Shown: piece after piece, positions 3,177-29,130 of the stretch | Layout: the number at the start of each line of letters is the position of its first letter | How positions within the stretch are numbered: position 1 is the stretch's first letter | DNA from: a bacterium | GTDB lineage: Bacteria; UBP14; UBA6098; B30-G16 | Assembly (NCBI GenBank): GCA_021161555.1 | Contig: JAGHAI010000108.1 | Coordinates: 1-39,310, forward strand | DNA length: 39,310 nucleotides | Direction: 5' to 3' | The notes under the pieces: generated by a model | What the model was told of the DNA's origin: nothing | What the model saw: the letters and a program-made list of their open reading frames with translations, nothing else | Database searches by the model: none | Made by a program: the position numbers and the translations under genes

Positions 3177-4385
3177 ATGGCGAAGGAGAAGTTCGAAAGG
3201 ACGAAGCCCCATGTCAACATCGGGACGATTGGACACATTGACCATGGGAAGACGACGCTTACTGCGGCAATTACGATGGTTCTTGCGCGCAAGAATCTTG
3301 CACAGGTAGCAACATTCGATTCCATCGACAGCGCACCTGAGGAAAAGGCACGAGGCGTCACCATCAATACTGCCCATGTGGAATATGAGACTGAGAAAAG
3401 GCACTATGCCCACATCGATTGTCCTGGGCATGCTGACTACATCAAGAATATGATTACCGGCGCGGCGCAGATGGACGGTGCTATTCTCGTCGTTTCCGCC
3501 GCAGATGGTCCTATGCCGCAGACGAGAGAACACATCCTTCTCGCCCGTCAGGTTAATGTGCCGGCAATTGTGGTGTTTATGAACAAAACCGATATGGTAG
3601 ATGACCCCGAACTGCTGGACCTGGTGGAGCTTGAAGTTCGTGAACTGCTATCAAACTATGGTTTCCCTGGAGATGAAATCCCAATTATCAAAGGCAGCGC
3701 ACTTGAAGCGATGAACAAAGGATTGAACGAAAGCACACCAATAGACGACCCCGCGTTCAAGCCGATACTCGACCTTATAGATGCAGTTGACGATTATATT
3801 CCCACACCAGTTCGCGATACGGACAAGCCCTTCCTTATGCCTGTCGAAGATGTATTTTCCATCACGGGTCGCGGGACAGTTGCCACAGGCAGAGTGGAGC
3901 GCGGAAGAATCAATCCGGGCGACGAAGTCGAAATCGTTGGCATAAAACCCACGAGAAAAACCGTTGCCACGAGCCTCGAGATGTTCCGAAAAATCCTCGA
4001 TTACGCAGAAGCAGGCGATAATGTGGGTATTCTGCTTCGCGGAATTGAGAAGAACGAAGTTGAGCGCGGAATGGTGCTTGCAAAACCAGGCACAATTACT
4101 CCGCACACAAAATTCAAGGGACAGGTCTATGTATTGAAAAAGGACGAAGGCGGTCGCCACAAGCCATTCTTCTCGGGCTATCGGCCACAGTTCTACTTCC
4201 GAACGACAGATGTAACAGGCACAATCAAATTGCCCGAAGGCGTCGAAATGGTTATGCCCGGCGATAATGTTGAAATGGAAGTCGAACTGATTTCGCCAAT
4301 CGCTATGGAACAGGGTCTTCGCTTCGCAATTCGTGAAGGCGGAAGAACAATTGGCGCTGGCGTCGTGGGCGAAATTATAGAATAA
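3177..4385 (+). CDS. tuf: Elongation factor Tu
   Basis: [48 protein letters not shown]; AGGAGG SD. Confidence 0.99.
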
Positions 4386-12108: not shown

Positions 12109-12840
12109 ATGCCGAGGCTTTCTGTAAATGTTGACCACATCGCAACTCTTCGTCAATTGAGGGGAACGAAATATCCTGACCCGGTGCTGGCTGCGTATCT
12201 TGCGGAACTTGGCGGAGCCGACGGAATCACAATTCATCTGAGACAGGACAGAAGACACATTCAGGACAGAGACCTGTTTTTGTTGAGGCAAACAGTTTCA
12301 ACACATCTCACCCTTGAAATGGCGCCCACAGAAGGTATGGCTCAAATTGCGCTCAAAGCTCTGCCCGATATGGTCACGCTCGTCCCCGAAAGGAGCGGAG
12401 AAAACACAACGGAGCGCGGGTTCAATCTCGAACAGGAAGGCGGAGAAATCGAACCCATCGTGAGAAAATTACAGGAAGGCGGAATGGAAGTTTCCCTATT
12501 CATCGACCCCACAGAAACAAATGTCCGCATCGCTGGTGAAATTTCTGCCGATTTCGTCGAACTCAACACGACCTTTTATGCCGAATCGGAAGATTTTGAA
12601 AAGGAGCTCGAAGAACTTGATAAAATCGAACGGGCTGCAAATCTTGCAGTTAAGCAAAAATTAGGCGTTGCCGTTGGACACGCTCTCGACTATCAAAATG
12701 TCCTGAACATCGCAGAAATTTCCGCCGTCGAAGAATTTTCAATCGGACACAGCATAATATGCCGGGCAGCTCTGGTCGGTATGGAAAGAGCAACTCGGGA
12801 AATGAAGGAACTTATTACGCGAACGGGCACTGACAGATAA
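12109..12840 (+). CDS. pdxJ: Pyridoxine 5'-phosphate synthase
   Basis: LSVNVDHIATLR, GITIHLRQDRRHI, VTLVPE, IGHSII. Confidence 0.97.
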   Translation: MPRLSVNVDHIATLRQLRGTKYPDPVLAAYLAELGGADGITIHLRQDRRHIQDRDLFLLRQTVSTHLTLEMAPTEGMAQIALKALPDMVTLVPERSGENTTERGFNLEQEGGEIEPIVRKLQEGGMEVSLFIDPTETNVRIAGEISADFVELNTTFYAESEDFEKELEELDKIERAANLAVKQKLGVAVGHALDYQNVLNIAEISAVEEFSIGHSIICRAALVGMERATREMKELITRTGTDR

Positions 12841-12928
12841 ACTGTTATAAAACTTCAATTATTACGAAATACAATTCACATTGATTTTTACCAAAATCCT
12901 TTATTCAGATGAAACAGTTTAAAAACTC

Positions 12929-12956
12929 TTGAAATCGCGAATTATTTTGCTATATT
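12929..12956 (+). promoter_or_regulatory. Promoter for the 180-nt ncRNA
   Basis: TTGAAA, 16 nt, extended -10 TGc-TATATT; predicted +1 near G12963. Confidence 0.6.
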
Positions 12957-12962
12957 TTATTT

Positions 12963-13142
12963 GCGGGAAGGGAATATAAACCCCAACACTAGTCCAATGG
13001 AGGGTGCTCCCGGATGTTGAGCTAACGCGATGACCTTCGTTTGAGGCTTCGGCTTTGAACGAAGCGAGCGGATGCAAAAGACTGATGGCGGCTATAAAAT
13101 CCTCTAATGTGCCCTTAGGTAGGGTTTGGACAACCTTCCCGC
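12963..13142 (+). ncRNA. 180-nt rod-shaped structured RNA, 6S-like candidate or novel ncRNA
   Basis: End pairing GCGGGAAGG/CCTTCCCGC, nested helices, 13-bp apical stem with cUUCGg loop, upstream promoter and downstream T run. Confidence 0.7.
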
Positions 13143-13444
13143 ATATTTTTTCCCTGAAAACACATTTCAAATTCCTCCAAAAAACCGCTAATTCCACAAG
13201 TAGCCCATTTAAGCTACCCTGAAATTCTGCTGCAAATAATTGGATATATGAAAAACTGAACAAAATTTTGTATTTGACTTTTTTAAATAATTTTACTATT
13301 AAGAAAAATTTGAATAATAAAAAATCATTAACTTCGGGCAAAATCAACAACTTCGCATAGAGGACAGTTTCGTCGGTATGTTCCTTGCAATGATATTTTA
13401 TGCTCATTTCGTAAAAACAAAGATTTTATAAATAGGAGGGAAAA

Positions 13445-14059
13445 ATGTATCTTGTCGGCATCACGGGGATGATAGCTTCGGGCAAGAGCACAGTTGCTAA
13501 ATTATATAAAGAAATGGGCGCATATCTTCTCGATGCGGATAAAATAGGGCATCAACTTTTGAACAACAATACCATCAAAAGGCGAATAATTGAGACCTTC
13601 GGGCGTGAAGTATTGGACGAAAAGGGCGCAATAGACAGAAAGAAACTGGCGGACATCGTATTCTCAAATGGAGAAAAACTGGAGCAACTGAATGAAATAA
13701 CGGAAAAACCGATAACATCCATTCTCCGAGAAAAGATAATGGAACTTCAGGATGCAGGATTTCCAGGCATAATAGTCATAGATGCCGCACTTCTTCCCAA
13801 GTGGGAACTGCGAAAAGTTATGGATGTCATTGTTCTTGTGGAATCGCCAAAATGGCAGTTGAAGAACAGGCTCGTTCGTCAGCGAGGCTATGCATCCGAC
13901 GATGCAGAGCGCAGAATAAAAGCTCAGGAAAAAATCTTCGTGGATTTTCATCCGCAGAAATCGATTGTCGTAAAAAACAACGGCGACTTTTTGGAACTCC
14001 GCTCAAACGCTATGGCAGTGTGGATGCAGATTAAGGAACTCGCAAAAAAGAAAAAATGA
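13445..14059 (+). CDS. coaE: Dephospho-CoA kinase
   Basis: VGITGMIASGKSTV P-loop, DADKIGH, IDRKKLADIVF; AGGAGG SD. Confidence 0.95.
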   Translation: MYLVGITGMIASGKSTVAKLYKEMGAYLLDADKIGHQLLNNNTIKRRIIETFGREVLDEKGAIDRKKLADIVFSNGEKLEQLNEITEKPITSILREKIMELQDAGFPGIIVIDAALLPKWELRKVMDVIVLVESPKWQLKNRLVRQRGYASDDAERRIKAQEKIFVDFHPQKSIVVKNNGDFLELRSNAMAVWMQIKELAKKKK

Positions 14060-17472: not shown

Positions 17473-17697
17473 CTATAAAAGTTTTTCCAATTCTTCCCAG
17501 TGCATTCCTATATCTTTCAAAATTTTCTTCAATATTCCCTTTGAGACATCCCTCCCCTTATGAACGGGAATAGTCAACCACCTACCATCTTTATTTTTCA
17601 TCACAATATGACTGCCGCTGGAACGAATTTTCTTAAACCCAAGTTTCTCAAGTGCGCGCAGAAGTTTCGTGGGACTAACTGGATGCAGTCGGCTCAT
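17473..17697 (-). CDS. hicA: HicA-family mRNA interferase toxin
   Basis: ALEKLGF..RSSGSH..TIPVHKGRDVSKGILKKIL; GGAGG SD supports ATG 17697. Confidence 0.92.
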   Translation of the reverse strand: MSRLHPVSPTKLLRALEKLGFKKIRSSGSHIVMKNKDGRWLTIPVHKGRDVSKGILKKILKDIGMHWEELEKLL

Positions 17698-17908
17698 ATA
17701 TTTCAACCTCCTCCACTGCTCGCTCTATTGGAACATCCTCGCCGAGCTGTTTTCGAGCCTCGATGTGAAGACGAATAGCGTCCTGAATATTCATAAGCGC
17801 TTCCTCATAACTTTTGCCCTGACTATAACATCCTTGCAAGGCGGGAACTTCGGCGATATAATCGCCATCCTCATCCTGCTCGATTATCACGGTATATCTA
17901 TAACGCAT
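17675..17908 (-). CDS. hicB: Short HicB-family antitoxin without a DNA-binding domain
   Basis: YTVIIEQDEDGDYIAEVPALQGCYSQGKSYEEALMNIQDAI; lies upstream of and overlaps hicA. Confidence 0.92.
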   Translation of the reverse strand: MRYRYTVIIEQDEDGDYIAEVPALQGCYSQGKSYEEALMNIQDAIRLHIEARKQLGEDVPIERAVEEVEIYEPTASS

Positions 17909-18961: not shown

Positions 18962-20389
18962 CTATTCTTCCTCATAGTGCACGACGAATGCTTTTAGATA
19001 AGTCATATGTTCTACGGCGAATTTTGGACCTTCGCGTCCCATACCGCTGTCCTTAATTCCGCCATAGGGCATAACATCGGCGCGGAATGTTGGCACATCG
19101 TTTACGATGACGCCGCCCACATTGATTTCCTGAAATGCCTTTCTGGCAGCCCTGATGTCGGCGGTGAAAATGCCTGCCTGCAATCCATATCTGCTGTCGT
19201 TGACCATCGCAATAGCCTCGTTGATGTCAACCACAGGGTTTACAACCACAAGCGGAGCAAAGGCTTCCTTCTGAATCACATCGGCGTTCTGCGGAACATT
19301 TGTAAGCACGGTTGGTTCGAACAGCGTTCCGTTTCTCTTTCCGCCACACAGCACATTTCCGCCCTTTGAAACTGCATCGGCTATCAGTCCTTCGATGCGA
19401 ACGGCATCCTTTTCCGAAATCACAGGACCGACATCGGTATTTTCCTGCAGCGGGTCTCCCAGTCTCAGCTTTGTTGACGCACTGACGATGTGTTCAACCA
19501 GTGTGTCGAAAATTGTCTCCTCAACATAAACTCTCTGAACGGATATGCAGACCTGCCCAGCCAGAGCCATTGCTCCGAGAACAATTCTATCTGCTGCTCG
19601 CAGCAGGTCGGCGTCCGCGAGGACGATTGCTGCGGAGTTTGAGCCGAGTTCCATAGCGATGTGCTTCATCCCGACCTTCGCGGCGAGTTTCTTGCCCACT
19701 TCTGCGCTTCCTGTGAATGTCACCACCTTTATTCTGTCGTCAGCCGCAATCGGCTCGGCAATTTTTGCACCACTTCCAGGAAGGACTGATACGGCATCGG
19801 CGGGATACCCGGCATCGAGGATGAGTTTGCCGAGCATAAGTCCTGTTATTGGCGTTGCGGAAGCGGGTTTCAGTATAAATGGATTACCTACGGATATGGC
19901 GGGCGCTATTTTGTGCATAGCAAGATTGAGCGGGAAATTAAAAGGCGTAATTGCAAGCACCGGTCCTGCGGGAAATCTCTGATAGAACCCCCATTTTTTT
20001 GCGCCGTTTGGTGCTATATCGTAGGGCAACACCTCTCCGATGGGTTCTCGTGTTAGAGCGGCGGCGAGTGCAAGGGTTTCCTGCGCCCTGCTGACCTCTC
20101 CTCGCGCTTCCCTTATCGTCTTGCCCATTTCAAGGGAAATTGTCCGCGCAAAGTCTTCCGCTCGCTGCGTGAGAAGATTTTTTGCGCGAAGCAAAATATC
20201 CTCGCGATGTCTCGCACAGAGATGGGATGTTTCGTCGAAAGAAAATTCTGCTCTGGATATAGCTTCTTCCACTATTTCCTCAGTCGCAGCACTGACGCGA
20301 CCAACAATCGAACCATCATAAGGCGAATGAATTTCAAATTTCTCATCGCTGTATATCTCCTTACCGCCCGCAATTAAAGGATAATCCAT
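18962..20389 (-). CDS. Non-acylating NAD(P)-dependent aldehyde dehydrogenase (lactaldehyde dehydrogenase/GapN-like)
   Basis: ITPFNFP, FTGS, MELGSN, GQVCIS, EAFAP, PYGGIKDSG. Confidence 0.93.
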   Translation of the reverse strand: MDYPLIAGGKEIYSDEKFEIHSPYDGSIVGRVSAATEEIVEEAISRAEFSFDETSHLCARHREDILLRAKNLLTQRAEDFARTISLEMGKTIREARGEVSRAQETLALAAALTREPIGEVLPYDIAPNGAKKWGFYQRFPAGPVLAITPFNFPLNLAMHKIAPAISVGNPFILKPASATPITGLMLGKLILDAGYPADAVSVLPGSGAKIAEPIAADDRIKVVTFTGSAEVGKKLAAKVGMKHIAMELGSNSAAIVLADADLLRAADRIVLGAMALAGQVCISVQRVYVEETIFDTLVEHIVSASTKLRLGDPLQENTDVGPVISEKDAVRIEGLIADAVSKGGNVLCGGKRNGTLFEPTVLTNVPQNADVIQKEAFAPLVVVNPVVDINEAIAMVNDSRYGLQAGIFTADIRAARKAFQEINVGGVIVNDVPTFRADVMPYGGIKDSGMGREGPKFAVEHMTYLKAFVVHYEEE

Positions 20390-20497: not shown

Positions 20498-20884
20498 ATG
20501 AATATTGGGGTTGTTTTAATTGCTCTTTCTGTTCTCATTATGGCGTGGGCGCTGGAACGCATCTTCACGAAGATACAGACTGTTGAAAGGCACATTATTG
20601 GTCTGCGGAAACGAATAAAGACTATCGAAAAGCGCGTTATGAGAGGAAACATATCGACGGCAAAATCTTCAACGGCGACCAGAACTATCGGGTTTGCTCC
20701 GCAGAACACAAATCCGAAGCCCAAACAAAAATCTATGCCCACCGAAACTGTCTGCTCGTTCTGCGGAACAAAATACAGTATGGAACTGGATAAATGCCCA
20801 AAATGCAATCATATTAACATAGAAAAATACAGGGTGAGAAGAAATACATCTTCAAAAGATGCTGACGAAGACCTCGATATTTAA
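20498..20884 (+). CDS. Membrane-anchored protein with coiled coil and C-terminal zinc ribbon
   Basis: N-terminal TM helix, CSFC..CPKC; AGGAGG SD; TTGACA at 20449. Confidence 0.75.
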   Translation: MNIGVVLIALSVLIMAWALERIFTKIQTVERHIIGLRKRIKTIEKRVMRGNISTAKSSTATRTIGFAPQNTNPKPKQKSMPTETVCSFCGTKYSMELDKCPKCNHINIEKYRVRRNTSSKDADEDLDI

Positions 20885-21174
20885 TTTTTGCGGTAGATTG
20901 TCTTATCTCCCATAATAATCTCGTCGATTATCGCCACAATTGATGTGTCAACAGGTCGATTTTTCAATCCGCTCGCCGTTCTGGCGGAACTTCCACGAAC
21001 TATTAAGACGATATCTCCAATGCCAGCGTCAACGATATCGACGCCGACCAATTTCAATCCTTTTGGCGTTAAGTCCTCTGGATTCAGTGCTTCAAGAGTT
21101 AGAAGTTTAAAACCCTTTATCAGTTCGTCCTTTCTTGTGGAAACGACAGTGCCGACCACCCTTGCTATTTCCAT
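20881..21174 (-). CDS. EutN/CcmL family microcompartment vertex (BMC-P) protein
   Basis: MEIARVVGTVVSTRK, VDAGIGDIVLIVRGSSAR, PVDTSIVAIID. Confidence 0.95.
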   Translation of the reverse strand: MEIARVVGTVVSTRKDELIKGFKLLTLEALNPEDLTPKGLKLVGVDIVDAGIGDIVLIVRGSSARTASGLKNRPVDTSIVAIIDEIIMGDKTIYRKN

Positions 21175-23611: not shown

Positions 23612-23905
23612 ATGGCAGAATCTGAAAAAATCGCAATTCCCGTAAAAATATTCAATCAAGAACTGCGAATACGCACTGACGAGCCACCTGAATATGTCAG
23701 AGAAGTGGCGAGGTATCTCGATTCCAAGATATTCGAAGTGGTCAATAGTGCAAGTGCAACATCGCCTACGAAAGCTGTGATTCTCGCAGCATTGAATATC
23801 ACTGATGAACTGTTTCGTGAACGGGAAAAATATAGGGAACTCTTTGAAAAAGTGAAAAGCCAGACCGAAATTATCGGCCAGAAGCTTGCTGAAATTGAGG
23901 CTTAA
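23612..23905 (+). CDS. zapA: Cell division protein ZapA
   Basis: VKIFNQEL..EVARYLD..AVILAALNITDELF. Confidence 0.93.
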   Translation: MAESEKIAIPVKIFNQELRIRTDEPPEYVREVARYLDSKIFEVVNSASATSPTKAVILAALNITDELFREREKYRELFEKVKSQTEIIGQKLAEIEA

Positions 23906-23999: not shown

Positions 24000-25568
24000 A
24001 TGTATTTGTCCACAGTCACTCTAATACTTGTTTTCGTGGCGCTTGGGGTTGTTGGCTTTGTCGTGGGGTTTTTCGTCAGCAAAATTCTTCTCAAAAGAAC
24101 CATAAAGGAAGCCCGAACGCACGCCGAAAAAATCATTGCCGAAGCTGAAAAGGAAATCGAAATCAGGCGCAGCAAAATGGAACTCGAGCTCGAGAAGGAG
24201 CGAAATCGACAGAGAAGCGACTTCGATAGGATGACGCGGTCAAAGCGAAACGAGCTTAACAAGCTTGAAAAACGACTTGAAGAACAGCGCGAATCGATAG
24301 AAAGTCGGGCGGATTTCATAAGGCGTCGCGAGAGAGAGCTGTCCAATTTTGAAAAGCAACTTACTTCAAAGCAAAAGTCATTATCCCTGAAGGAAAAAGA
24401 GCTTCAGGAAGTGCTTCATCGTGAGAATGAGAAGCTTGAACGCATTGCGGGAATGACGCAGGAAGAAGCGAAGCGTGTTTTGATGGAAAATCTTGAGGCG
24501 GAAGCGCGGGCAGAAGCGGCGCAGAGAATCAAGCAGATTAAAGAAGAGGCGGAGATGAAGGCGGAGCGCGAGGCGAGGGAAGTGATAGTTTCCGCAATTC
24601 AAAGATGTGCCGCAGAGACAACAGTGGAATCGACGGTATCCGTTGTATCGCTGCCGTCGGATGAGATTAAGGGAAGGATAATCGGACGGGAAGGAAGAAA
24701 CATCCGCGCTTTTGAAACCGTCACAGGTGTCGATGTCATCGTCGATGATACGCCAGAAGCGATAATTCTTTCGGGATATGACCCTATCAGGCGGGAAGTG
24801 GCTCGCATCGCTATGGAAAAACTGATTATGGACGGCAGAATTCACCCCGCGCGAATCGAAGAAGTCGTGGCGAAAGCCGAAAAGGAAATCGAAAACATTT
24901 TTAAGGAAACAGGTGAGCAAATCTGCTTCGAACTCGGGATACACGACCTGCATCCCGAACTCGTCAAACTCATCGGACGGTTGAAATACAGAACCAGCTA
25001 CGGGCAAAATGTCCTCCAGCACTCGAAGGAAGTGGCATACCTCGCCGGATATATGGCATCTGAACTCGACCTCGACCCCAAAATTGCAAAAAGATGCGGC
25101 TTGCTCCACGACATCGGCAAGGCAATAGACAAGGGACAGGAAGGAACTCACACGGAACTTGGCTATCAAATAGCGAAGAAATACGGCGAGAAAGAAATCG
25201 TTCTCAATGCGATACAGGCGCATCACGAGGATGTGGAAATCACATCGCCATACACGGTTCTGGTGCAGGCGGCAGATGCCGTATCCGGAGCAAGACCAGG
25301 AGCGAGAAGGGAGACTCTTGAAAATTATATCAAGAGGCTGCAGCGCCTTGAAGAACTTGCAGATTCCTTTCCAGGCGTCGGAAAGACATACGCAATTCAA
25401 GCTGGAAGGGAAATCCGCGTCATTGTCGAACCCACCAAGGTCGATGACAGACAATCAGAAATTCTTGCCGCCGAAATTTCTCAGAAAATCCAGAGCGAAA
25501 TGGAATACCCGGGGCAGATAAAAGTCGTCGTAATAAGGGAAACTCGAGCGGTGGACTATGCTAAATAA
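24000..25568 (+). CDS. rny: Ribonuclease Y
   Basis: N-terminal TM, coiled coil, KH (KGRIIGREGRNIR), HD (GLLHDIGK), SGARPGAR. Confidence 0.98.
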   Translation: MYLSTVTLILVFVALGVVGFVVGFFVSKILLKRTIKEARTHAEKIIAEAEKEIEIRRSKMELELEKERNRQRSDFDRMTRSKRNELNKLEKRLEEQRESIESRADFIRRRERELSNFEKQLTSKQKSLSLKEKELQEVLHRENEKLERIAGMTQEEAKRVLMENLEAEARAEAAQRIKQIKEEAEMKAEREAREVIVSAIQRCAAETTVESTVSVVSLPSDEIKGRIIGREGRNIRAFETVTGVDVIVDDTPEAIILSGYDPIRREVARIAMEKLIMDGRIHPARIEEVVAKAEKEIENIFKETGEQICFELGIHDLHPELVKLIGRLKYRTSYGQNVLQHSKEVAYLAGYMASELDLDPKIAKRCGLLHDIGKAIDKGQEGTHTELGYQIAKKYGEKEIVLNAIQAHHEDVEITSPYTVLVQAADAVSGARPGARRETLENYIKRLQRLEELADSFPGVGKTYAIQAGREIRVIVEPTKVDDRQSEILAAEISQKIQSEMEYPGQIKVVVIRETRAVDYAK

Positions 25569-25631: not shown

Positions 25632-25710
25632 GCGACAGCAGAAATATTGTTGTTAAGATAGTTTTTTGGACTAAATTATTAAATTGAAGGCAAAATTTGA
25701 GAGGTGCATA

Positions 25711-28700
25711 ATGATTTTACTGGCAATTTTAATATTGTTCGCATCATCATTTGGCGGAGAAATTTTCGTCGATGTCGAATATAATCGTTCTGACTTTTCA
25801 ATTATTTCCGATGGCAATTATTACCACATAGTTTCGCAGAATTGTGCCGTTTTCGGAGATGCCGGTGGCCCGGAATATCTTGCAGAACCGGTGCATATTC
25901 TCCTTCCGCCGCACACAAAGGCAAAATCTATGAGGATTGTTTCCGCAGAGTACGATTTTTTTGCGGAAGATATTTTCATCGCACCTTTTCAACCGCCGAC
26001 TATACGACCTATGCCAGGATTGGATATTTCGCCGGGTTTTCTGCCGCATAATCCACAGAAATATTCGCAGGATAGTTTTACGCCATCACAGCCGGCAAAA
26101 TTTACAGGCGGCGGAAATTTATCCGGATACTCGATGGCGGACATCATTGTTTTTCCATTGAGGTATAACCCGTTCAGAAGAAAAGTTGAATACTTAAAAT
26201 CATTGAAAATTTGTGTGGAATATGAGAACGGTATATCCACATCTGCGCCTGCTGTGCGTTCTCCGAAAAGTGAGCAAATTTTTTCGCGAATAGTCCGCAA
26301 AATTGCAAAAAATCCCGATGCCATTTCCCTTTATTCTGCGCTGTGGGCAATTGATGTGGGAACGAAGGATTATGCAGTCGTGTGTGCGGAAAGTTATTCT
26401 TCCACCGATGCTATGGAAAAATTTCGCCTCGCACTGCGCAGGCAGGGCTGGAACGATACGCTTATAACGGTGGAATCCACATCTTCTTTTCCCGGCAGTG
26501 ATGAGGGCGAAAAGTTGAGAAATGCTTTGAAAAATTTATATGAAAGTTCGGGCATTGCCGCTGTCGTTCTCGTGGGAGATATAAATGCGGTGCCTTTCAG
26601 ATATGGGTATGCTATGGATTGCGGCGCAGGAATTATGCCGGATGAAAATTATATCCCCTGCGACCTGTATTTCGCCGATTACGATGGGGACTGGAACGCG
26701 AACGATACTTTTCCCTACGGCGAAGTTTCGGACAGCGTGGATTTATATCCCGATGTTTTAATCGGCAGGATTTCGGCGGATTCTCCGACCGAATTCAGCA
26801 ACTGGGTTGACAAATACACCACCTATGTTGAAGATACCCCTGCCGATTTCGGAGCGGAAGCGCTGTTTCTCGCAGAAATCCTGTGGGATGACCCGTTCAC
26901 AGATTCGGGCGTCGGCAAGGATATGGTCAGGGATGATGCTCTGCCGTCCTGGTTTGAGTTGACGAGATTGTATGAAACTCTTGGGAATGAGACGATGTTA
27001 TCTGTCACATCCGCGTTCAACGACGGCTATGGCATTACAAATCACGATGGACACGCATTCTGCTCCATAATCGGCGTCGGCGATGATTACTTTGATTTGA
27101 GCGATGCGGACGCGCTGCACAATTATCCTCGATGTGGGGTTATGTATTCCATCGGCTGCTGGCCTGCAGCGTTCGACTACGACTGCATCGCTGAACACTT
27201 CATCACAAATCCCGACGGCGGATTTGTGGCATTTGTCGGAAATTCAAGATACGGCTGGGGCTCGCCAGGAAATCCCGGATACGGATACTCGGACTACTTC
27301 GACCACGATTTCTGGAAAAATATCTTCGGCGGTTCTCCCGCCATAGGCGAGGCTCTTGCCGTTATAAAGTCTTTTTATACACCCTTTGCGAGGTGGGAAA
27401 ATGTCTGGCGGTGGAAAATTTACGAAATCAATGTGCTCGGCGAACCCGGAATGGTCGTATGGCAGGATGAACCAGTTGCCAGGGAATATGAACTGCCATC
27501 TCTTATAGAATCCGGCGGCGCTCCACTTTCGATAACATCTGAAACGCAGATTTCTATGACGGCGATTCAGGACGGTGAGATAATCGACAGAAATGAAGGT
27601 GCTGGAAGCGTCGAACTGTGGGTTGAACCTATCACATCTTCTCCAATCGAAATATCAGCCTTCTCGCCCGATGGATTCTTAAAAATATTCACCGATTCCA
27701 TTTATGTCGATGCTGGTGTGCCTTACATTGCCCTCGATTACCTTTCACAGAACACAATTTCGCCTGCTGAAACTGCCTCTGTCATCTTTTATATGCGCAA
27801 CTACACTTCCACTGGCGGGGCTTTTTCGTGGAGTCCCGAATTAACCAGCGGAGGAGAAATCCTGTCGTATGAAGCGGGTCCTTCTGCAATTTTTGGCGAA
27901 GATACATTTTCGCTGTCCGCCGCCATCGTTGCAGATGAGGAACTGGCGAACGGCGAGCAAGTGTTATTGCAATTGAACTGCGTCTGCGACGATGATACTT
28001 TTCCCGTTCCAGTGGCTATCGAAGGAATTGCGCCGGTTCTTTCCGTCTGTTCGGTGAAACTTTTCGGTTCGCATTTCGGAGAAGCGGCGCTGCCAGGGGA
28101 AGATTATTCGCTGTTCGCTGAAATAGTAAATTCTGGTTCAGATTCATACATCGGAGATGTGTCGGCGAGCAGTCCTTCGTCTTATCTCACTATTTATGGC
28201 ACCTCACCGGTGGAAGCACACAGCGGAACGACCTTTACAGCATCGCCAATCGCTCTGTCCGTGTCTCCCGTGTGTCCATCGCCGTCAGTTCAGCCGATTA
28301 TTTTCTCCTTCGATGATGGCGAAGCTGATACCTTTTATCTGTCCGTCGGTGAGGGAAAATTTTTGGACGATGCGGAAGGCACGCCGCATTTCAGTATGGG
28401 TAGTTCCTGGCATCAAACGACGGATGATTTTCACGACGGCGCTCATTCATATCGCTGCGCGGACGAGATTTCGGGATTATACCCCGACAACACAGACGCA
28501 TATCTTACGAGCGACACAATTGTGATTGGTGAAAGGGCGGTGCTTTCCTTCTGGATGAGATATGAAGTCACCACCCTTGAGGATGACTATGGAACGGATG
28601 GGCTCTATCTTTATATCTACGATATAGACGATGATTCGCTTGTGGAAATTGCCTTCATCGGCGGCGGCGGTGCTTTGCCCTTCACCAATTTTGAAATGGG

Positions 28701-29130
28701 CTGGACGCACTGGCAGTTCAAAATTCCGTTTGCCGCGCAGAAGAAAATTTTGGTTGAGTTCCGATTTCTTTCCGATTACGGAGATAATGCACAGGGCTTT
28801 TTCATCGACGATGTTTATGTGAAGTGGCAGCGGACAATTGTGGAAACGACCACAGATATACAATCCTCTCTGCAAAAGCCGAAGATACCTATTTTGTCAA
28901 TTGCGCCAAACCCGTTCAATTCATCCTGCAAAATCGCCATCGACAATCTGGATGAGAATGCGGATATCGACATATTTGACTTATCGGGAAAGAATCTATA
29001 CCATCGCTCAATTCGTGCGCCGAAGAAGACCATCGTCTGGCATCCGAAGGACATCGCAAGCGGAATATATCTCTTCAGGGCAAAGGGAAAGAATTTTTCC
29101 ACGCAGAGGAAAATTTTCTTCATCAGATGA
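25711..29130 (+). CDS. C25 (gingipain-like) cysteine peptidase with propeptide, accessory beta domains and T9SS-type CTD
   Basis: VVLVGD, CDLYFAD, IGRI, NHDGH and SIGC catalytic motifs, VLGEP, C-terminal APNPFN..SGIYLF; GAGGTG SD supports ATG 25711. Confidence 0.9.
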   Translation: MILLAILILFASSFGGEIFVDVEYNRSDFSIISDGNYYHIVSQNCAVFGDAGGPEYLAEPVHILLPPHTKAKSMRIVSAEYDFFAEDIFIAPFQPPTIRPMPGLDISPGFLPHNPQKYSQDSFTPSQPAKFTGGGNLSGYSMADIIVFPLRYNPFRRKVEYLKSLKICVEYENGISTSAPAVRSPKSEQIFSRIVRKIAKNPDAISLYSALWAIDVGTKDYAVVCAESYSSTDAMEKFRLALRRQGWNDTLITVESTSSFPGSDEGEKLRNALKNLYESSGIAAVVLVGDINAVPFRYGYAMDCGAGIMPDENYIPCDLYFADYDGDWNANDTFPYGEVSDSVDLYPDVLIGRISADSPTEFSNWVDKYTTYVEDTPADFGAEALFLAEILWDDPFTDSGVGKDMVRDDALPSWFELTRLYETLGNETMLSVTSAFNDGYGITNHDGHAFCSIIGVGDDYFDLSDADALHNYPRCGVMYSIGCWPAAFDYDCIAEHFITNPDGGFVAFVGNSRYGWGSPGNPGYGYSDYFDHDFWKNIFGGSPAIGEALAVIKSFYTPFARWENVWRWKIYEINVLGEPGMVVWQDEPVAREYELPSLIESGGAPLSITSETQISMTAIQDGEIIDRNEGAGSVELWVEPITSSPIEISAFSPDGFLKIFTDSIYVDAGVPYIALDYLSQNTISPAETASVIFYMRNYTSTGGAFSWSPELTSGGEILSYEAGPSAIFGEDTFSLSAAIVADEELANGEQVLLQLNCVCDDDTFPVPVAIEGIAPVLSVCSVKLFGSHFGEAALPGEDYSLFAEIVNSGSDSYIGDVSASSPSSYLTIYGTSPVEAHSGTTFTASPIALSVSPVCPSPSVQPIIFSFDDGEADTFYLSVGEGKFLDDAEGTPHFSMGSSWHQTTDDFHDGAHSYRCADEISGLYPDNTDAYLTSDTIVIGERAVLSFWMRYEVTTLEDDYGTDGLYLYIYDIDDDSLVEIAFIGGGGALPFTNFEMGWTHWQFKIPFAAQKKILVEFRFLSDYGDNAQGFFIDDVYVKWQRTIVETTTDIQSSLQKPKIPILSIAPNPFNSSCKIAIDNLDENADIDIFDLSGKNLYHRSIRAPKKTIVWHPKDIASGIYLFRAKGKNFSTQRKIFFIR

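Follow-up and report, generated by a model that had tools for sequence, protein, structure and literature searches.

A single-copy rod-shaped small RNA gene shared by several uncultured phyla, with a circumstantial case for a 6S-type function

6S RNA is regarded as nearly universal among bacteria, and its gene frequently lies downstream of zapA and upstream of ygfA, a synteny that is common rather than defining. Its distribution was reportedly surveyed by Wehner et al. in 2014, who are also said to have predicted 6S RNAs in the Bacteroidetes. Among the RNAs likened to 6S RNA, the Ms1 RNA is about 300 nucleotides (nt) long. Ms1 of the Actinobacteria is described as resembling 6S RNA and as binding the core of RNA polymerase (PMC9130861), and a study of Bacteroides thetaiotaomicron reports experimental validation of a 6S RNA and its product RNAs (pRNAs) in that organism (PMC7366714). 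Here we analysed a stretch of 39,310 nt (contig JAGHAI010000108.1 of assembly GCA_021161555.1, hereafter the window), in which the intergenic region between pdxJ and coaE holds an element that a first-pass annotation had described as a stand-alone noncoding RNA, either a relocated and strongly diverged 6S RNA or an undescribed RNA. Judged from its fold, its conserved promoter and 3' end, and covariation among homologues, the element is a genuine, stand-alone small RNA gene on the + strand, uncatalogued before and found in more than one phylum.

All pairings proposed for the element, its cUUCGg loop, its promoter and its T run were read in the sequence at the positions where they had been placed (Table 1). 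The + strand folded with a minimum free energy (MFE, ViennaRNA) of -73 kcal/mol, compared to -53.4 +/- 4.7 kcal/mol for 200 dinucleotide shuffles (z = -4.17), none of which was as stable, and the resulting structure was an end-to-end rod with the same pairings. The MFE of the - strand was -56 kcal/mol (z = -2.17), with 6 of the 200 shuffles as good. The + strand, already preferred in the first-pass annotation, is thus favoured by the fold, and also by a G-U pair (28/165) kept in 53 of 58 distinct homologues. From its ends inwards, the consensus consists of a closing stem P1 (10 base pairs, bp), a small loop, the A/U-rich P2 (7-9 bp), a central internal loop, the helices P3 to P7, and an apical stem P8. 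On its 5' side the central loop opens with YAACA and is about 14 nt long; its 3' side occupies 15-19 alignment columns. P3 (AUGRAGG with CCUYUAY) is almost invariant and is followed by an A-rich bulge on the 3' strand (NNUAAA); beyond this bulge lie P4, P5, a 3x5 loop (UGM opposite ARAAN), P6 (2 bp), a 3x3 loop and P7 (CGC/GCG).

The junction between P7 and P8 (13026-13034 with 13065-13070) is composed of the CGC/GCG stem, a bulge GAU (13029-13031), the oppositions G13032.A13067 and A13033.G13066, a C.C opposition and then P8, an order that we would read as a kink-turn (K-turn). Across the family, the K-turn positions were G at 1b in 55 of 58 sequences, A at 2b in 55 of 58 and A at 1n in 54 of 54, with position 2n divided among G (25/54), U (18/54) and C (11/54). 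P8 itself is formed in the window by 13 pairs, three of them G-U, between 13035-13047 and 13052-13064, with the loop TTCG (13048-13051) closed by a C-G pair; its length among homologues ranged from 0 to about 13 bp.

The promoter found upstream of the element matched consensus at 10 of 12 positions in our scan, with a spacer of 16 nt between TTGAAA and TATATT and with the TG of an extended -10 element present, and the -10 element places the predicted transcription start near 12962-12964. Three promoter-like sites were counted in the region as against 2.1 +/- 1.2 in shuffled sequences, making the promoter match in the window weak evidence when taken alone. The TATAnT columns were invariant in an alignment of six homologues, and all 23 copies from the window's phylum that were printed and compared by eye had TTGnnn, 16-19 nt upstream of TAnnnT, a few bases before the closing stem. 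The same layout was seen by eye in copies from other phyla. At the 3' end, a U run directly followed the closing stem within the window's family, and a separate GC-rich hairpin with a U run was present in other families (both by eye). A terminator scan of the region returned no match, since the "stem" in front of the T run consists of the whole RNA's closing helix.

BLASTN searches provided seeds from five relatives with 70-78% identity, and these with the window copy were used for a first covariance model (R1). The alignment of the six sequences had invariant core sequences and compensatory changes at 22 of 43 predicted pairs. A second model (R2) was built from 33 sequences without P1, which was tested separately on the R1 alignment (A4). 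Using R1 and R2, a single match per genome was obtained in 24 of 26 genomes from the window's phylum, among them all 18 high-quality ones; the window's class and phylum comprise the same 26 genomes. The two genomes with no match were 74% and 83% complete. One R1 match, in genome G013 (27.9 bits), was rejected as a false positive lying inside an 841-codon oxidoreductase frame; the true copy in this genome, adjoining recA, was found with R2, and the count stays at 24 of 26. The RNA is single-copy in the window's own assembly (2.3 Mb, 92.8% complete), and its copy number never exceeded one in any genome searched.

A degenerate motif drawn from the alignment occurred at 23 places in a public species collection. 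R1 confirmed all 23, and 11 of them had a score unlike that of any hit from the window's phylum. The record titles were "Candidatus Zixiibacteriota" (6), "uncultured Ignavibacteriales" (4), "FCB group" (1), "bacterium UBP14_UBA6098" (1) and "bacterium" (11). In a second phylum, to which one of these newly matched genomes belongs, exactly one copy was found by R2 in 147 of 151 sampled genomes. We also searched a separate sample of relatives, again of 151 genomes, 125 of them from other families. Two strong and two weak R2 matches were observed among these 125, the weak ones (G270 and G039) having the core motifs and compensatory changes. R2 matched 7 of 41 genomes from the phylum of G270, and a third model that included sequences from this phylum (R3) matched 30 of 40 of its genomes, representing 11 of 12 genera, with one copy each. 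R3 added a single weak match in the 125 other-family genomes (G026:C154:138-249, - strand, 26.8 bits, E = 0.014), which may be a very distant member of the family or a chance match, and gave nothing convincing in 120 of the 125. The family spans at least three phyla and the lineage of G039, and within the sampled genomes is apparently confined to them.

Covariation was strong. The inner rod was tested with an R2-fitted alignment of 62 sequences, 58 of them distinct, in which standard pairs made up 85.1% of cells compared to 42-52% when partners were slid by 1-3 columns; double changes were observed at 28 of 37 pairs, and none of 500 column shuffles reached any of the five measures used. For P1 (23 sequences, R1 alignment), 95.6% of cells were paired compared to 52-57% with slid partners, with double changes at 10 of 10 pairs. 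Both alignments were fitted to the models, which favours the structure; the independent single-sequence MFE folds give the same rod. Within individual helices, double changes were found at 8 of 9 pairs in helices 1-2 (the P2 region), 5 of 6 in helix 4, 3 of 4 in helix 5 and 6 of 6 in helix 8. As an example from P2, ACCC/GGGU in the window is replaced by AUCUC/GAGAU in another family of the same phylum, and the P6 pair 55/131 was represented by five pair types (CG 42, UA 8, GC 4, AU 2, UG 2). Helix 3 (P3) was 86% paired, its sequence being nearly invariant across phyla (columns 26-33 and 160-166). Four proposed pairs were poorly supported (33/160, 49/138, 45/141 and 8/194).

Conservation of sequence extended to positions outside the helices. 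Columns 12-16, the YAACA motif, were U, A, A, C and A in 53, 48, 51, 55 and 56, respectively, of the 57 distinct sequences with a letter there; in the third phylum P3-P8 were kept and YAACA was lost. The A-rich bulge had A at columns 155, 156 and 158 in 57, 58 and 57 of 58 sequences. In the core, U49 and G50 were invariant, G67 and A68 were each present in 55 of 58 sequences, A123 in 54 of 54 with a letter, and A135 and A137 in 58 of 58. One genus of family f3 (g10; genomes G013 and G018) has lost all of P6-P8 with the K-turn-like motif, and another genus (g11; G014, G020 and G023) has a degenerate core with the gene, its promoter and the P2-loop-P3-P5 part kept. The g10 copies (L030 of G018, 1501-1647; L101 of G013, 1501-1614) have a promoter, P1-P5, the A-rich bulge and adjacency to recA. 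This deletion of the core offers a useful natural mutant for deciding which part of the RNA matters.

Rfam 15 does not contain the family. At gathering thresholds, the only matches in the whole window were four tRNAs. When the 606-nt intergenic stretch (12840-13445) was searched at E <= 10, no family was matched besides the human long noncoding RNA DLEU2_6, a chance match on the - strand (13.2 bits, E = 8.7); among these matches there was none to the signal recognition particle (SRP) RNA and none to 6S-Flavo (RF01685). Two other members searched at E <= 10 gave only chance matches to SNORD60 and mir-255, and ten homologous loci at E <= 5 gave only unrelated weak matches elsewhere in the loci. 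The novelty proposed at the outset therefore stands with respect to Rfam. In the literature on Zixibacteria 6S RNA and UBP14 noncoding RNA we found no paper on this family, with predictions by Wehner et al. (2014) for these lineages being possible.

The alternatives named in the first-pass annotation, a diverged 6S RNA or an undescribed RNA, were not decided between by computation, in contrast to the part of that proposal concerning a genuine uncatalogued RNA, which holds. The circumstantial case for a 6S-type RNA is a good one, and we put the probability that this is a lineage-specific 6S-type RNA, predicted to sequester RNA polymerase as an open-promoter mimic, at roughly 0.58. This reading is favoured because of the 6S-like size, the single copy, the strength of the promoter, the rod shape with its central loop, the presence elsewhere of the other universal small RNAs, and a distribution complementary to that of the standard 6S family (RF00013). 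Members are 154-184 nt long, and this size and the rod with a central loop match the architecture of 6S RNA. The SRP RNA (RF00169) was found elsewhere in the genome (C30:10186-10286, 67.7 bits), consistent with the earlier observation that the element has no SRP loop motif, and RNase P RNA and tmRNA (transfer-messenger RNA) were present on other contigs of the same genome.

The complementary distribution appears as follows. No match to RF00013 (gathering threshold 46.4 bits) was found in the whole genome of the window, so the search for a second 6S gene that had been suggested came back empty. Of the 125 other-family genomes among the relatives, 65 gave an RF00013 match with the same tool. Among 221 genomes that carry the new RNA and were searched for RF00013, the two were never found together, and none of the 29 relatives-sample genomes with the new RNA is among the 65 RF00013-positive ones. 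A Bacteroides thetaiotaomicron control genome had no RF00013 match in any of the control listings despite the validated 6S RNA of this species, and therefore RF00013 appears to be blind in at least part of the Fibrobacteres-Chlorobi-Bacteroidetes (FCB) group. RF01685 (threshold 85 bits) matched neither the genome of the window nor any of the 151 relatives, a result that says little as the controls were also silent.

If the RNA acts as 6S RNA does, it would mimic an open promoter and so occupy the RNA polymerase holoenzyme with its primary sigma factor, with the central loop taking the place of the transcription bubble, the closing stem that of downstream DNA and the internal stem that of upstream DNA. 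Release could then occur when the polymerase copies the 5' strand of the loop (the YAACA segment) into the A/U-rich P2, freeing the 3' strand, which in the window's phylum may refold into a competing hairpin. Lineage-specific contacts with the polymerase or with an accessory protein would be made by the A-rich bulge and by the core, which comprises a 3x5 loop, a 3x3 loop and the K-turn-like motif. The competing hairpin in the window copy has a predicted energy of -6.4 kcal/mol (p = 0.043 against shuffles), and 11 of 24 sequences from the window's phylum, including this one, had such a hairpin at p <= 0.05. Complementarity between the 5' and 3' strands of the loop was observed in 2 of 24 sequences from the window's phylum and 7 of 33 from elsewhere. 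Related sequences are not independent, in these counts or in those of the distribution. Two candidate mimics of promoter elements in the RNA were considered and rejected: UAUAAA as a -10 element, in which the key -10 positions are not the conserved ones, and GUUGAG as a -35 element, which lies on the strand equivalent to the template.

Several observations weigh against a 6S-type function. Outside the window's phylum, the competing 3' hairpin reached p <= 0.05 in only 2 of 33 sequences, and the central loop could be closed by 6-8 further pairs in 7 of the 33, as well as in both f3 sequences (L030 and L101). In a rough, MFE-based comparison the central loop started at about 23-28 nt, as against about 42 nt in 20 canonical 6S RNAs. 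The parts best conserved across phyla are the core of the internal stem and P3, not the loop. We know of no 6S RNA in which a K-turn-like motif or an A-rich bulge of this kind is a feature. RF00013 gave no score to any member tested, with no match in the 26 genomes of the window's phylum, in the 151 of the second phylum or in a set of three genomes, which argues against membership in that family. In the reverse direction, 20 RF00013 hits from other phyla were searched with R3 without filters, and the best score was 7.8 bits (E = 4.9), outside the 6S RNA or not colinear with it. The zapA/ygfA synteny is also missing: zapA lies elsewhere in the window (23612-23905, Pfam ZapA) and rny starts at 24000, the gap between them being 94 nt, as had been reported. 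The related suggestion that the gene has been relocated was not borne out, in that the copies in relatives are not beside zapA either, lying in the window's phylum usually convergent with recA and, in the second phylum, beside acpS or phosphoribosyltransferase genes.

In a possible, less favoured explanation, several uncultured phyla of the FCB group would share a housekeeping RNA of a class not described before and other than a polymerase mimic. A dedicated protein, for example an L7Ae-like K-turn binder, would recognise its core (P3, A-rich bulge, UGM/ARAAN loop, 3x3 loop and K-turn-like motif), or this core would adopt a tertiary fold with its own function; the ends of the rod would serve only for stability and termination, and these phyla would either have no 6S RNA or hide another one. 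In keeping with this explanation, the sequence conserved over three phyla lies mainly in the internal stem, including its non-Watson-Crick loops, with G67, A68 and A123 (the K-turn-like G.A positions), A135, A137, A155, A156 and A158 nearly invariant. The third phylum has lost the loop sequence YAACA, several lineages can close the loop by further pairing, and no similarity to RF00013 exists in either direction. In addition, 57 of the 151 relatives-sample genomes had neither the new RNA nor an RF00013 match, and therefore a missing RF00013 match does not by itself define a vacant 6S slot. On the other side, g10 has lost the core and g11 has let it degenerate, yet both retain the gene, the promoter and the P2-loop-P3-P5 part, so that the core is dispensable, unlike the loop-proximal part. 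No conserved protein gene accompanied the RNA in the neighbourhoods scanned. To our knowledge, moreover, whenever a single-copy rod of about 180 nt was previously found across a bacterial phylum with no annotated 6S RNA, it proved to be a 6S RNA or a polymerase-binding relative.

All readings beyond a 6S-type RNA and a new class together account for a few percent. A cis-acting leader, riboswitch or terminator of coaE or pdxJ is very unlikely. The element is intergenic, both neighbours are encoded on its strand, and its closing stem and U run would terminate transcription; against this, its promoter is its own and is conserved, coaE lies beyond about 295 nt of AT-rich DNA, no Rfam cis-regulatory family was matched, and the neighbours are unrelated between genomes and mostly on the opposite strand in relatives (a convergent recA and a divergent upstream gene). 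Among the scanned loci of the window's phylum, the seven with an open reading frame (ORF) of about 350 codons at this place all had the 3' end of recA convergent with the RNA, as did G013. Neighbours at other loci were eutN, gcvH, folD, dapA-like or thiC genes, and those in the second phylum were acpS, a phosphoribosyltransferase gene and an unannotated frame of 205-250 codons. The neighbours therefore vary between lineages in a way that rules out a leader or riboswitch. A mobile repeat (miniature inverted-repeat transposable element), which the first-pass annotation had raised as an alternative, or a protein-coding region on the - strand (a 162-codon frame, 12919-13407) is hardly credible, for although the region forms a long inverted repeat within AT-rich DNA and is spanned by an open frame, which could suggest either, the element is single-copy and never exceeds one copy in the genomes searched, compensatory changes keep RNA pairs that include G-U pairs which would be C-A on the other strand, and the frame has no Pfam match and no comparable frames kept in relatives.

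Table 1. Coordinates of the small RNA gene, its parts and its neighbours in the window.
Feature	Position	Strand	Description	Basis
RNA gene	12962-13151	+	About 188 nt; predicted ends; single-copy	Fold and covariance-model matches
-35 hexamer TTGAAA	12929-12934	+	Homologues have TTGnnn at the same relative place	Promoter scan
Extended -10	12948-12956	+	TG 12948-12949, one base, TATATT 12951-12956	Promoter scan
P1, 5' strand of closing stem	12962-12971	+	Includes GCGGGAAGG (12963-12971); pairs with 13134-13143	
P2, 5' strand	12977-12983	+	Includes AAACCC (12978-12983); pairs with 13122-13128	
Central internal loop, 5' strand	12984-12997	+	14 nt; YAACA motif (CAACA in window)	
P3, 5' strand	12998-13005	+	TGGAGGGT / UGGAGGGU (family AUGRAGG); pairs with 13099-13106	
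P4 and P5, 5' strands	13006-13018	+	GCU.CCG ... GUU; pair with 13080-13092	
Conserved core, 5' strand	13016-13034	+	GUUGAGCUAACGCGAUGAC; P5, P6, P7 and K-turn-like bulged strand	Alignments
P8, variable apical stem-loop	13035-13064	+	13 bp, UUCG loop in window	
Conserved core, 3' strand	13065-13082	+	CGAGCGGAUGCAAAAGAC; G13066 and A13067 opposite A13033 and G13032	
P5 and P4, 3' strands	13080-13092	+		Fold and covariation
A-rich bulge	13093-13098	+	UAUAAA on the 3' strand, nothing opposite	Fold and conservation
P3, 3' strand	13099-13106	+	ATCCTCTA / AUCCUCUA	Fold, covariation and conservation
Central internal loop, 3' strand	13107-13121	+	15 nt; possible hairpin GCCCU/AGGGU competing with P2	
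P2, 3' strand	13122-13128	+	Includes GGGTTT (13122-13127)	Fold and covariation
P1, 3' strand of closing stem	13134-13143	+	Includes CCTTCCCGC (13134-13142)	Fold and covariation
U run	13146-13151	+	After closing stem; likely 3' end, with closing stem as terminator	
pdxJ, upstream neighbour	12109-12840	+	Outside element	PF03740, 294 bits
coaE, downstream neighbour	13445-14059	+	About 295 nt past RNA; outside element	PF01121, 112.9 bits

The covariance-model matches on the window copy spanned 12959-13150 with R1 and 12973-13134 with R2 and R3. Between the RNA and coaE (13152-13444) the DNA is very AT-rich and holds no called feature, with one promoter-like site on the - strand (13341-13314). Two genomes from the same family have a gene for an EutN/CcmL microcompartment vertex protein immediately before the RNA (L009, 1157-1459; L012, 1158-1454). 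In the window, the EutN gene (20884-21174) is about 8 kb from the RNA, with an aldehyde dehydrogenase gene nearby (18965-20389). The difference in the position of this gene means that the surroundings of the RNA have been rearranged within the family.

Other features of the window were recorded as well. Four tRNA genes (2367-2984) lie directly upstream of tuf (EF-Tu, 3177-4382), which is the common tRNA-tufB arrangement. A HicA-toxin-like frame of 77 codons was found on the - strand at 17476-17706 (Pfam HicA_toxin, 69 bits). A protein with a type IX secretion sorting domain and a 1148-codon C25 (gingipain-family) peptidase (829-2262 and 25684-29127) fit an organism of the FCB group.

The standard Rfam 6S model finds no 6S RNA in whole phyla that are represented only by metagenomes, and the new family, if of the 6S type, would fill this gap for at least three or four of them. 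Its covariance model is usable by annotation pipelines. Should the 6S-type assignment be correct, the conserved modules of the internal stem (the K-turn-like motif and the A-rich bulge) would represent a new way of contacting RNA polymerase. Should it not be, the family would be a new housekeeping RNA spanning phyla, a rare kind of finding, and its partner would need to be sought.

Among the described systems, the bacterial small SRP (4.5S) RNA (RF00169) is similar as a single-copy housekeeping hairpin RNA with conserved internal loops, and differs in that the element has no SRP match and the SRP RNA of this genome lies on contig C30. Ms1 is alike by description: it is an abundant, rod-like, lineage-specific RNA that takes the role of 6S RNA in bacteria where canonical 6S RNA was not found, and it differs in binding the core polymerase, unlike the holoenzyme binding proposed here. 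The 6S RNAs of the Bacteroidetes (6S-Flavo, RF01685, and that of Bacteroides, PMC7366714) also belong to the FCB group and are also missed by RF00013, and these are a precedent for divergent, lineage-specific 6S families. From 6S RNA itself (SsrS, RF00013) the new family differs in its shorter closing stem and longer internal stem (a rough comparison), in the strong sequence conservation of that internal stem with its K-turn-like motif and A-rich bulge, in not lying beside zapA or ygfA, and in the lack of a score in either model direction. It resembles 6S RNA in having a single gene per genome, driven by a strong sigma-70-type promoter and present nearly throughout its lineages, whose product is about 150-200 nt long and is predicted to fold into two irregular helical arms flanking a large central internal loop. 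In part of the family only, a 3' hairpin may form in competition with the closing stem, of the kind required for release driven by pRNA synthesis.

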